64,000 bases of DNA from Mustelus asterias (taxonomy: Eukaryota): positions 372,001 through 436,000 of the forward strand of contig NW_027590173.1 in NCBI RefSeq assembly GCF_964213995.1, written 5' to 3'. A program made the translations under genes and the position numbers. Shown here piece after piece: positions 59,057-64,000 of this stretch. The first letter of the stretch is position 1. Each line of letters starts with the position of its first letter. The notes beneath the pieces were generated by a model. The model was not told the DNA's origin. It saw only the letters and a program-made list of their open reading frames with translations, and did no database searches.

Positions 59057-59132
59057 TACCAGGAGTAGGGTTCGAACCCACGCAGACATATGTCCATTGG
59101 ATCTTAAGCCTTAACCACTCGGCCATTCTGGT
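59057..59132 (-). pseudogene. tRNA-Leu(TAA) with 7-nt anticodon-stem deletion
   Basis: ACCAGAATGGCCGAGTGGTTAAGGC|TTAAGATCCAATGGACATATGTC...GGTTCGAACCC; T5 terminator just downstream. Confidence 0.88.
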
Positions 59133-60376
59133 ACGAGAACTGGCTGTCAAATAGGCACATCATCTGTCTCTCCTGCAGTTTGGGTCTGTGGAATTGATCA
59201 GCTGTCTGTGTCTCTGAGCTGTCAGTGACAATGTACGGACTGTGTGTGAGAAGGAAGGAGTTGGCAACAATTTCCCCTGTAACTTGTGTGGAGGAAATAT
59301 CACGTTTGTTTTGGATCTGTCAAATATTTGTCTGTGGAAACAAAGTACATTTAATATCTCAAATCCAGATTCCGTCAGTTTAATCTCTATTAATAATCAT
59401 TGTGAGCGGTTTGTGAGGCTGCAGCCAGACTCGAGCTCTGATTGGTCACTCACATTTCAATCACATTCTTAACCAATCGGAGAGCCAGGTAGAAGAAATG
59501 GGAGGTTTTGATTGGTTCACATTTTCAAACTGGAAAAACCCGCCAATTTCAGTGCAGGAAAAATACAAAATAACGGAACGCCTGAATGTTCAGGAAACTA
59601 TTTCAATCTCACACTTTATAATCTGTTTATTGTATTTTCCCTCAGAATCCTGGCGCTATTTTAGGAACAGTTTGAATTTCTCAATCTCTTATCTATAACC
59701 CGCGGTAATCAGACCCCGTTCAGCAATTTAAAACGGAGCAAATCTCAGCTCAGTGGAAAAGCAGAGCTTCACAGGGACAGAGAGAAACGGCTGATTTCTG
59801 ATCCTCTCCCCTGAAAGCGGCCGGGAATGTTACAATGGGAAGTGCGGAGAGAATCCCCGGCCCGATCCCGCCGGTGGAACAGGCAGCTTTGTGTCCGGAG
59901 AATAGGGAGCGCCGGGGGGAGGCAGATCTTAAAGCGCTGCAATGGACTCAGGTCCTGTGTGTGCACAGATCTGGCTGATTCCGTCCTCTGGGAAAGCTGC
60001 GGAATAAACAGATCAGCCCGAGAATAACCTCTTCATTCCCGCCTTTACTCTGTTGCGGGAGCTGCTCCCAGATCACCCGAGAAAAAAAAATTAATTCAGG
60101 GTCGTGAAACTCTGAATATAGTGATAAATAAATTTAAATAATTACCTCCTGATATTCTTTCTCCCCATTGTCCGTGACAATCCCCAGACTGGGATTTAAA
60201 ATACGCTCTCAGTTCAGTTTGATTGTCCCTTCAATGTGAAAGTGTGTGTGAGGGGCGGGTATGAAGTCCCATTCACAGCATTCTGCACCGGGACAAATCT
60301 CTATCCTCCAGAAAGACATTTCTCATTCACTCAATAAGGGAAAAGATGGCGCAGCTTTTTCACAGGGATTGTGAGT

Positions 60377-60392
60377 GGCTCTTAAAAGAGCC
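60377..60392 (-). terminator. Histone 3' stem-loop (H2B)
   Basis: GGCTCTTTTAAGAGCC on the minus strand, AAAAAGCTG downstream. Confidence 0.95.
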
Positions 60393-60427: not shown

Positions 60428-60814
60428 TTACTTGGAGCTGGTATACTTGGTCACCGCCTTTGTCCCTTCCGACACGGCGTGCTTGGCCAGTTCCCCGGGC
60501 AGCAGCAGGCGCACGGCGGTCTGGATCTCCCGGGAGCTGATGGTGCTGCGCTTGTTGTAATGGGCCAGGCGGGAAGCCTCACCCGCGATGCGCTCGAAAA
60601 TATCGTTCACGAACGAGTTCATGATGCTCATGGCCTTGGAGGAGATGCCGGTGTCGGGGTGAACCTGCTTCATCACTTTGTAGATGTAGATGGAGTAACT
60701 CTCCTTCCTCGACTTTCGCCGCTTCTTGCCGCCCTTTGTTCCCGGTTTCTTAATCACTTTCTTCGCCCCCTTCTTGGGAGCTGGTTTCGGTGTTGGTTTC
60801 TTCTCATCAGCCAT
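60428..60814 (-). CDS. H2B: Histone H2B
   Basis: [26 protein letters not shown]...KYTSSK; ATG at 60814. Confidence 0.99.
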
Positions 60815-60854
60815 CTTCAATTTCACACAGAAATAAAGCAAACCCCTTCCGAGC

Positions 60855-61035
60855 GCTGATTAAATAGACAATCCCACAGAACTATGCTAATGAGGAATTG
60901 GGAAAGCAATGATTGTGATTGGACATTTTGAAAGTTATTACAGTCACTTATCAGGGATTCAATTGAGTGGATATGAAAACAGACCAATCAGATTGAGGGG
61001 TTTCCGCCAATCACAAGCCTCCTTACCACAATCAG
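60855..61035. promoter_or_regulatory. H2B promoter, potentially bidirectional
   Basis: TATTTAA (minus strand), octamer-like ATTAGCAT (60884-60891), CCAAT boxes in both orientations (about 60918, 60984, 61007). Confidence 0.75.
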
Positions 61036-61113
61036 GAAATACATTTTACAAAGAATCTCCAGCGCCAGTTTGTCAGTGTGTAAAGATACACCGGGACCGG
61101 CGGCCATTACAAG

Positions 61114-61422
61114 ATGGCGGCGGCTCCTTCCAGAAAGAGCTTCGTGATCTTCGTGTCGCGGGTGCCCTGGACCCTGGCCGGCAAAGAAATCAAAGAATAT
61201 TTTGGACAGTTTGGATTAGTAAAGAAATGTCTTCTTCCATTCGACAAAGAGACTGGATTTCATAGAGGATTCTGTTGGGTTGGCTTCAATACAGAAGAAG
61301 GGCTTCAGAATGCACTGCAGAAGGAACCACACCTCCTTGAAGGGGCAAAGCTTCAAGTTCAGAGAAACAGAAAATTGTTTCAAGGGCGCAGACCAAATAA
61401 AGTCACTGAATCAGCAAATTGA
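61114..61422 (+). CDS. SLIRP: SLIRP-like RRM protein, intronless retrocopy with intact ORF
   Basis: FVSRVPWT...[12 protein letters not shown]...EEGLQNALQ matches SLIRP; ATTAAA, A9 tail and 15-bp TSD. Confidence 0.88.
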
Positions 61423-61589
61423 CACTGAACATGGAGGGTATAGTTAAAGCTCTTTTGTCCTAAGTAAATTAAAGATGGTGATTTAAACACTAAAAAAAAA
61501 GATCCACCGGGAAATGTCGCCTGGCTGTCGGTGTGAGGGACCCTTCTCCACAGAAGAACTGTGCGGGAGTGTGGGATTCCTTCAGGAAC

Positions 61590-62522
61590 TGTGAATCTCT
61601 GGTAATGTGCGTGAGTGTGGGATTTACTTACTCTCTGATACAGTGTGTGAGTGTGGCATTTACTCACTCTCTGATACAGTGTGTGAGTTTGGGATTTACT
61701 CACTCTCTGATACAGTGTGTGAGTTTGGGATTTACTCACTCTCTGACACAGTGCGAGAGTGTGGGATTTACTCACTCTCTGATACAGTGTGTGTGTGGGA
61801 TTTACTCACTCTCTGATACCGTGTGGGATTTACTCACTCTCTGATACAGTGTGGGATTTACTCACTCTCTGATACCGTGTGTGAGTGCGGGATTTACTCA
61901 CTCTCTGATACCGTGTGTGAGTGCGGGATTTACTCACTCTCTGATACCGTGTGTGAGTGCGGGATTTACTCACTCTCTGATACAGTGTGAGAGTGTGGGA
62001 TTTACTCACTCTCTGATACCGTGTGTGAGTGCGGGATTTACTCACTCTCTGATACCGTGTGTGAGTGCGGGATTTACTCTCTCTCTGATACAGTGTGGGA
62101 TTTACTCACTCTCTGATACCGTGTGTGAGTGCAGGATTTACTCACTCTCTGATACAGTGTGAGAGTGTGGGATTTACTCACTCTCTGATACCGTGTGTGA
62201 GTGCGGGATTTACACACTCTCTGATACAGTGTGTGTGTGTGGGATTTACTCACTCTAATACAGTGTGAGAGTGTGGGATTTACTCACTCTCTGATACAGT
62301 GTGAGAGTGTGGGATTTACTCACTCTCTCTGATACAGTGTGAGAGTGTGGGATTTACTCACTCTCTGATACAGTGTGAGAGTGTGGGATTTACTCACTCT
62401 CTGATACAGTGTGAGAGTGTGGGATTTACTCACTCTCTGATACAGTGTGAGAGTGTGGGATTTACTCACTCTCTGATACAGTGTGTGAGTGCGGGATTTA
62501 CTCACTCTGATACAGTGTGTGA
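61590..62522. repeat. ~34-bp minisatellite (GTGTGGGATTTACTCACTCTCTGATACAGTGTGA)n
   Basis: Homogeneous tandem units. Confidence 0.97.
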
Positions 62523-64000
62523 GACCATAAGTTATCGGAGCAGAATTAGGCCACTCGGCCCATCGAGTCTTATCCGTCAATCATGACTGATATTTTTCTC
62601 TTCCTCATTCTCCTGCCTTTTCCCCATAATCCCTGGTCCCCTTATTAATCAAGTCTATCTATCTCTGACTTAAAAAACACTCAATGACTTGGCCTCCACA
62701 GCCTTCTGCAACAAAGAGTTCCACAGATTCACCAGTCCCTGGCTGAACAAATTACAGTAAGAAGTCTCACAACACCAGGTTAAAGTCCAACAGGTTTATT
62801 TGGTAGCAAATACCATAAGCTTTCGGAGCAATGCTCCTTCGTCAGATGGAGTGGTCTCTGTTCTCAAACAGGGCACAGACACAGAAATCAAATTACAGAA
62901 TACTGATTAGAATGCAAATCTCTACAGCCAGCCAGGTCTTAAATGTACAGACAATGTGGGTGGAGGGAGCATTCAACACAGGTTAAAGAGATGTGTATTG
63001 TCTCCAGACAGTACAGCTTGTAAAATTGTGCAAGTCCAGGAGGCAAGCTGTGGGGGTTACTGATAATGTGACATAAATCCAACATCCCGGTTTAGACCGT
63101 CCTCATGTGTGCGGAACTTGGCTATCAGTTTCTGCTCAGTGACTCTGCGCTGTCGTGTGTCGTGAAGGCCGCCTTGGAGAACGCTTGCCTGAAGATCCAA
63201 GGCTGAATGCCCGTGACTGCTGAAGTGCTCCCCCACAGGAAGAGAACAGTCTTGCCTGGTGATTGTCGAGCGGTGTTCATTCATCCGTTGTCGTAGCGTC
63301 TGATGAATGACAACGGATGAATGAACACCGCTCGACAATCACCAGGCAAGACTGTTCTCTTCCTGTGGGGGAGCACTTCAGCAGTCACGGGCATTCAGCC
63401 TTGGATCTTCAGGTAAGCGTTCTCCAAGGCGGCCTTCACGACACACGACAGCGCAGAGTCACTGAGCAGAAACTGATAGCCAAGTTCCGCACACATGAGG
63501 ACGGTCTAAACCGGGATGTTGGATTTATGTCACATTATCAGTAACCCCCACAGCTTGCCTCCTGGACTTGCACAATTTTACAAGCTGTACTGTCTGGAGA
63601 CAATACACATCTCTTCAACCTGTGTTGAATGCTCCCTCCACCCACATTGTCTGTACATTTAAGACCTGGCTGGCTGTAGAGATTTGCATTCTAATCAGTA
63701 TTCTGTAATTTGATTTCTGTGTCTGTGCCCTGTTTGAGAACAGAAACCACTCCATCTGACGAAGGAGCATTGCTCCGAAAGCTTATGGTATTTGCTACCA
63801 AATAAACCTGTTGGACTTTAACCTGGTGTTGTGAGACTTCTTACTGTGCTTACCCCAGTCCAACGCCGGCATCTCCACATCATGAACAAATTACTCCACA
63901 TCTCTGTTTTAAAGGATCGTCCCTTTAGCCTGAGATTGTGCCCTCTGGTTCTAGTTTTTCCTGATTTTGGAAACAAACTCTCCATGTCCACTCTATCCAG
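62522..64000 (-). mobile_element. CR1 3' end interrupted by a Penelope palindrome
   Basis: CR1 tail at 62522-62750 continues after 63894. Confidence 0.8.
62756..63882. mobile_element. Penelope-like element as an inverted dimer with TSD
   Basis: Two GIY-YIG C-terminal copies in opposite orientation; 12-bp TSD TGAACAAATTAC (62744-62755 and 63883-63894). Confidence 0.92.

Follow-up and report, generated by a model that had tools for sequence, protein, structure and literature searches.

A SLIRP retrocopy amplified with an H2B unit in a shark histone cluster is probably an unselected passenger

Processed pseudogenes made by LINE machinery are recognized by the loss of introns, an A tail and a duplication of the target site. 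In amniotes, divergent H2A/H2B gene pairs are spaced by about 300 bp and carry two-way CCAAT boxes, with octamer and CCAAT elements upstream of H2B. Retrocopies that recruited the bidirectional promoter of a neighboring gene are known in mammals, human HTR7P1/HEBP1 being a reported example (Carelli et al. 2016, PMC4772013). A vertebrate survey reported coding potential in 10-50% of retrocopies, which were mostly species-specific outside mammals, birds and turtles (PMC13320880), and the LRPPRC-SLIRP complex and the function of SLIRP have been described elsewhere (PMC5001613, PMC11637978, PMC13274650). Among the papers listed in literature searches on SLIRP retrocopies or pseudogenes, on processed pseudogenes in histone clusters and on elasmobranch retrocopies, none was on the locus described here, although the retrocopy tables of PMC13320880 may include it.

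The locus lies in a window of 64,000 nucleotides of the Mustelus asterias genome (C141:372001-436000), in a region of dispersed histone and tRNA genes. H1, H4, H3 and H2A genes are found at 22-28 kb of the window, an H2B gene at 60.4-60.8 kb, and another H2B and an H2A just past its end. ARAGORN called four tRNAs in the window region; a tRNA-Leu-like sequence with an apparent short deletion (59060-59135, minus strand) was not among its calls. A near-perfect inverted repeat of a dispersed element, about 1.1 kb long, which we take to be Penelope-like, occupies 62755-63848 and is common to the carriers of the retrocopy. In a stingray, histone and tRNA clusters were reported to share a location (10.1101/2025.06.08.657570).

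A processed copy of SLIRP occupies 61097-61491 of the window on the forward strand and differs from its parent on C18 at 3 of 395 letters. Alignment to the parent identified 17 nt of parental 5' UTR (61097-61113), with a G>A change at 61106 common to all five copies in the assembly, and parental 3' UTR (61423-61491) with ATTAAA at 61468-61473. Between them lies an intronless ORF of 102 amino acids without stops (61114-61422), identified from the ORF list, a structure-database match and the parent alignment. Paralogue comparison and motif reading placed the two copies of a 15-bp target-site duplication at 61082-61096 (AAAGATACACCGGGA) and 61498-61512 (AAAGATCCACCGGGA), both read on the forward strand, and the single mismatch between them is a later change, as the C223, C85b and C85c copies have the C allele in the 5' repeat. 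The sequence ends in an A9 tail (61492-61500); its last three A overlap the start of the 3' repeat, which leaves A6 as the unambiguous tail. The tail (A6-9) is non-templated, because the parent reads other sequence at that point: the copy begins 17 nt 5' of the ATG and stops 18 nt past ATTAAA, where the parent continues into a T-rich genomic stretch that is absent from the retrocopy. The encoded protein has a single RRM (Pfam RRM_1), its best PDB match is human SLIRP (E 3e-31), and shark SLIRPs are its closest named relatives (93% to P0001). A protein cluster listing shows an NCBI source with exactly the protein of the window, which indicates that one pipeline called the window copy coding; the SLIRP cluster holds one named entry per species, two for one species, and none is labelled a second copy.

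The parental SLIRP gene on C18 has four exons separated by GT-AG introns of 7261, 1608 and 653 bp, and the retrocopy joins all three junctions exactly (after 61183, 61242 and 61350). Together with the single 15-mer in empty paralogues described below, the joining of all three junctions of a four-exon parent means that the retrocopy is not a chance resemblance. It shows all three marks of a processed retrocopy, namely introns removed, an A tail at the parental poly(A) site and a duplication with empty sites, and an earlier note that had identified an intact SLIRP retrocopy here was right in this respect; the ORF, ATTAAA, A9 tail, 15-bp repeats, H2B spacing and promoter boxes that it described were all found where it had placed them. 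The window protein equals the parental one at 101 of 102 residues, the one change being E11V at 61145, and keeps both histidines of the LRPPRC-binding patches, whereas the copy lacks the introns and the promoter of the parent, and in three sister copies both histidines are replaced by Arg. An ALKBH1-like first exon (L019:876-1007, C18) stands head to head with the parent gene, at 197 bp from ATG to ATG. C6, C18 (14.66 Mb) and C17 carry at least three further SLIRP retrocopies that are older and broken, with 83-88% identity (L006, L007, L009/L010). As read from these remains, SLIRP would have been retroposed at least four times in this lineage, with breakage as the usual fate of the older copies.

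Full-length intronless SLIRP frames were found five times in the assembly: once on C141 (the window), once on C223 and three times on C85. All five have the same breakpoints, tail and flanks and the shared 5' UTR change, and several kb of flank are common on both sides. A promoter search yielded 53 candidate H2B promoter units, and five of the best 40 carry the retrocopy. Among the 35 listed non-carriers, 28 paralogues were read, and in 26 of these a single 15-mer runs straight into the downstream flank with no insert, the other two having a deletion that starts inside the 15-mer. The shared breakpoints and flanks of the five copies and the empty non-carrier paralogues prove both the target duplication and a spread by DNA duplication: there was one insertion, which was then copied along with the H2B unit to five places. 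Amplification with H2B copies, which the earlier note had proposed to check, is therefore borne out. In lacking introns and having an A tail and a target duplication the shark copy resembles LINE-made processed pseudogenes in general, but it differs from them in sitting within a repeated histone unit and so having become a small family by DNA duplication.

The number of copies could in principle be inflated by assembly artefact or haplotype duplicates. The C141 and C223 retrocopies are identical and their flanks only 0.03-0.24% apart, and because of this near-identity the two may be alleles or a very recent duplicate, so that the number of loci may be below five. The C85 copies, however, differ by 1-3% and have an insert of their own, and a contig of run X17 passes from the flank into spliced SLIRP exons with the window's T61145, albeit reaching just 24 letters into the flank and coming from a run that may derive from the source animal. 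Artefact as the origin of the copy picture is in our judgement barely credible. Between lineages the divergence is 1.27% for the retrocopy, 1.0-1.1% for the downstream flank and 2.5-2.7% for the upstream flank. The pedigree mutation rate reported for the epaulette shark, 7e-10 per generation (PMC10587355), would roughly correspond to an age of the order of ten million generations, possibly many millions of years, as a cross-species estimate. At about 1% from its parent, the copy would count as young in sequence terms. An attempt at dating by the C>T difference at 61272 in runs X1 and X18 failed, as three old retrocopies have C.

The neighboring H2B gene is intact, of the replication type and 128 amino acids long (60428-60814, minus strand; ORF list and domain search), and a pattern scan placed its histone 3' stem-loop at 60377-60392 on the same strand. 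Its ATG at 60814 lies head to head with that of SLIRP, 300 bp away, in the arrangement that the earlier note had reported. Motif scans of the intervening sequence found a TATA-like box of H2B (TAAATA at 60861; 60860-60866, minus strand) and no TATA match on the SLIRP side. They also found an octamer-like element, ATGCTAAT, at 60884-60891, with one mismatch to ATGCAAAT, and four CCAAT boxes within 60897-61011 (ATTGG at 60897 and 60918, CCAAT at 60984 and 61007). The octamer-like element is also kept 5' of the second H2B at 73545 and is presumably an H2B box. In the three C85 carriers (L022-L024) a 152-bp dispersed repeat, which we assume to be Penelope-like, interrupts the TATA box of H2B and has a 6-bp duplication; the H2B frames are intact, and the octamer and CCAAT boxes have been moved away from H2B and not from SLIRP. 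Some H2B copies elsewhere are broken, with frames ending at 61 amino acids in 2 of 30 units (L030, L037) and one H2B split by an insert (L066:11155-11850).

The octamer-like and CCAAT elements 5' of the shark H2B, the two-way CCAAT boxes and the 300-bp spacing all recall the amniote H2A/H2B pairs, and one could suppose that a divergent H2A was once present here, was lost and had its slot filled by the retrocopy. The empty sites hold no H2A and lead into non-coding sequence and minisatellite. We examined 45 H2A loci (the 30 best and 15 from other contigs, among 150 matches), and at none of them does a divergent H2B lie within about 1.5 kb upstream; an H2B near H2A stands in tandem upstream at five. 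H2A genes at these loci (L077-L106, L115-L129) are usually tail to tail with H3 or 3' of H2B. The promoter arm on the SLIRP side aligns with the promoter of the second H2B (score 54 against a shuffle maximum of 36), but its scores with the upstream regions of two H2A genes (33 and 26) stayed below the shuffle maxima (35 and 42). An H2A remnant in the arm was considered and rejected on these scores. A lost H2A partner is thus highly unlikely, and the statement of the earlier note that the retrocopy occupies the H2A partner slot is not supported. The shark arrangement departs from the amniote pairs in having no H2A partner, here or at the 45 loci, and in having an outward transcript that is spliced and non-histone.

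This transcript was recognized from run X18, in which a contig of 214 nt reads across the empty-site junction, continues along 61498-61602 and exits at a GT donor to other sequence. The interval 61498-61603 (forward strand) is thereby the rest of a host exon ending in the donor at 61602-61603, and a 36-bp minisatellite found by repeat search (61596-62523), present in carriers and non-carriers, forms the start of the host intron. The evidence for the host transcript is this one contig of one run, which has another organism label and a library type that is not recorded; its spliced contigs suggest that the run is RNA. The 5' end of the contig was not taken as a start site because the same contig ends occur in two DNA-like runs. 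No long frame opens from the ATG of the host exon: of 28 units, 26 have a TGA at codon 27 and the other two a 1-nt deletion. The exon into which the retrocopy was inserted belongs to a spliced transcript, probably non-coding, that is directed away from H2B and may start in the H2B promoter, to judge from the CCAAT boxes at 60984 and 61007.

Past the donor, the X18 contig continues into a 165-nt exon bounded by AG and GT (L059:1500-1665, C85:1829776 on). For seven of its eight close pattern matches, a listed promoter unit stands 1.8-5.3 kb upstream in the same orientation; in the set of the best 40 of 53 units, 15 of the 35 non-carriers and none of the five carriers have the exon within 15 kb. 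One of its frames is open, with 3- and 9-nt in-frame indels among paralogues of 85-88% identity on C70, C72, C73, C81, C134 and C169; in all it has 15 close paralogues, and relatives of 72-74% lie near histone genes on C5. It is possibly a decayed coding exon. The exon belongs to an uncharacterized NCBI model, P0121, which joins it both to a repeat-derived exon and to one lying 24 kb upstream, and the last third of the model matches a genome-wide repeat. Pfam searches of the exon and of P0121 gave nothing significant, and no zinc-finger arrays were found downstream of nine regions. In two units (L039 on C959 and L040 at C141:809744) a deletion of about 5 kb, with CAC microhomology, begins in the same 15-bp target site and removes both host exons.

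The proposed history starts with a SLIRP mRNA that would have been inserted by target-primed reverse transcription, a LINE endonuclease cutting at GT/AAAG in an open promoter region; the hallmarks are presumably L1-like. Its spread would then have come about through segmental duplication of the histone cluster and not through selection on SLIRP. Use of the outward side of the H2B promoter by the retrocopy is plausible, given a spliced transcript that crosses the empty target site in the direction away from H2B, and the copy may work in the manner of the mammalian retrocopies that use a neighbor's two-way promoter. We consider transcription at some level, by capture of the start of this spliced non-histone transcript, to be somewhat more likely than not. 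Such an RNA could end at the retrocopy's own ATTAAA, adding a near-parental protein to that of the parent, or could read through as far as the donor at 61602, which lies 179 nt beyond the stop codon, and would then be a likely target of nonsense-mediated decay. When four of the 21 listed runs were compared with 60820-61615, parent-type spliced SLIRP contigs appeared in X1 and X18; among the listed contigs of these two runs none joins flank and SLIRP, and those of X18 leave the part upstream of 61090 uncovered, but both runs are sets of assembled contigs with other organism labels and so have no bearing on expression of the copy. A run search listed no RNA run with the sequence, which speaks neither for nor against expression.

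We examined the coding changes for signs of selection. The window copy differs from the parent as given above and the C85 copies at 4 letters, and across all copies there are five distinct coding changes: E11V, D44E, H50R, H73R and one silent. The ratio of replacement to silent changes is 4:1 against a neutral 3.4:1 (224:66 sites), a comparison with almost no power at five changes, and as far as these can tell the divergence is neutral, an outcome that the earlier note had named as refuting its own proposal. The frame is open in all five copies, and the ATG context and ATTAAA are kept in each. The chance of no stop after five distinct coding changes is about 0.77, so at about 1% divergence an intact frame is expected by chance. 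E11, H50 and H73 are kept in 120 of 120 homologues and D44 in 117 of 120, the set being fish and amphibian sequences without mammals, 120 listed of 191 matches. All four replacements therefore fall at near-invariant sites (P about 0.004 under a random null, post hoc), or about 0.05 without E11, which may be discounted since human SLIRP has V at position 11. Two of the four fall in the five LRPPRC-patch residues (P about 0.016, post hoc). The location of the replacements at near-invariant and LRPPRC-patch sites argues against constraint for normal SLIRP function.

The earlier note had proposed that the intact copy may be a retrogene expressed from the histone promoter in S phase or in the germline, which would couple the control of mitochondrial mRNA to the transcription of histones. 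The open frame of every copy fits such a selected retrogene, as do the outward CCAAT boxes with a spliced transcript across the site and a window copy changed only by E11V, to the residue that human SLIRP has; 11 retrocopies in human and 12 in mouse are, moreover, reported to have captured a promoter head to head, with co-expression (PMC4772013). Silent changes are nevertheless not in excess, the replacements fall where SLIRP hardly varies, intactness is what chance predicts and the copy is carried by only 5 of the best 40 units. The step from intactness to an S-phase or germline function is thus not supported, the coding changes looking neutral or damaging, and we regard a selected retrogene as improbable. 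Among the criteria for a functional retrogene the copy fails none outright, and the one it passes, the intact frame, is the weakest.

The three C85 copies, which share H50R and H73R, raise a separate possibility, namely that these were selected as an LRPPRC-independent RNA-binding protein or as a crippling against extra SLIRP dosage. In an alignment without gaps shark H50 and H73 correspond to human H59 and H82, which are reported to lie in the only two human SLIRP patches whose alanine mutation abolished LRPPRC binding (PMC5001613). The invariance of both histidines among the listed homologues, the open frame and the position of the 152-bp insert, which puts distance between H2B and the octamer and CCAAT boxes but leaves their spacing to SLIRP unchanged, would all suit this proposal. 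It is weakened by the fact that there are two changes only, both A>G transitions and noticed afterwards, that the published mutants are double or triple alanine changes and not single His-to-Arg changes (PMC5001613), and that the window copy lacks both. Selection against dosage would, in addition, have fixed stops as readily, and the copies have none. Clustering of the changes beyond chance leaves selected uncoupling as a small possibility, and we hold selection on the C85 copies to be just as improbable as selection on the retrogene as a whole. The functional readings taken jointly are unlikely. The fullest of them, a SLIRP retrogene family that captured the outward H2B promoter, was amplified with the cluster and became LRPPRC-independent in its C85 branch through arginine at both contact histidines, with the insert uncoupling the promoter from H2B and the protein made in proliferating or germ cells, is very unlikely.

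The explanation that we favor, and consider probable, is that the retrocopy is an unselected passenger that was inserted once upstream of H2B, was duplicated with the histone unit and is maybe weakly transcribed. The H2B unit tolerates damage, as seen in the promoter insert of 3 of the 5 carriers, the absence of the 165-nt second exon from 5 of 5 carriers and 20 of 35 non-carriers, and the deletion in 2 of 28 units. This tolerance counts in favor of a passenger, as do the older broken copies and a retrocopy divergence (1.27%) within the range of the flanks (1.0-2.7%); against it count the lower divergence of the retrocopy compared to the upstream flank (1.27% versus 2.5-2.7%), the keeping of all five frames with their ATG context and ATTAAA, the clustering of replacements at near-invariant sites and the coding call by one NCBI pipeline. 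The locus is like the HTR7P1/HEBP1 type in being a processed copy head to head with a protein-coding gene less than 2 kb away (PMC4772013). It differs from that type in that the neighbor is a multicopy, replication-type histone gene, the copy has been amplified with it and promoter use is putative here.

As a passenger, the retrocopy would serve as a clean, dated marker for birth-and-death turnover in the histone cluster of a shark and would illustrate well how a retrocopy can multiply by hitchhiking. The locus also exposes a spliced non-histone transcript that appears to run outward from shark H2B. Were a functional reading true, the control of histone genes would be tied to a chaperone of mitochondrial mRNA, and a natural LRPPRC-uncoupled SLIRP would provide a direct test of SLIRP without its partner.
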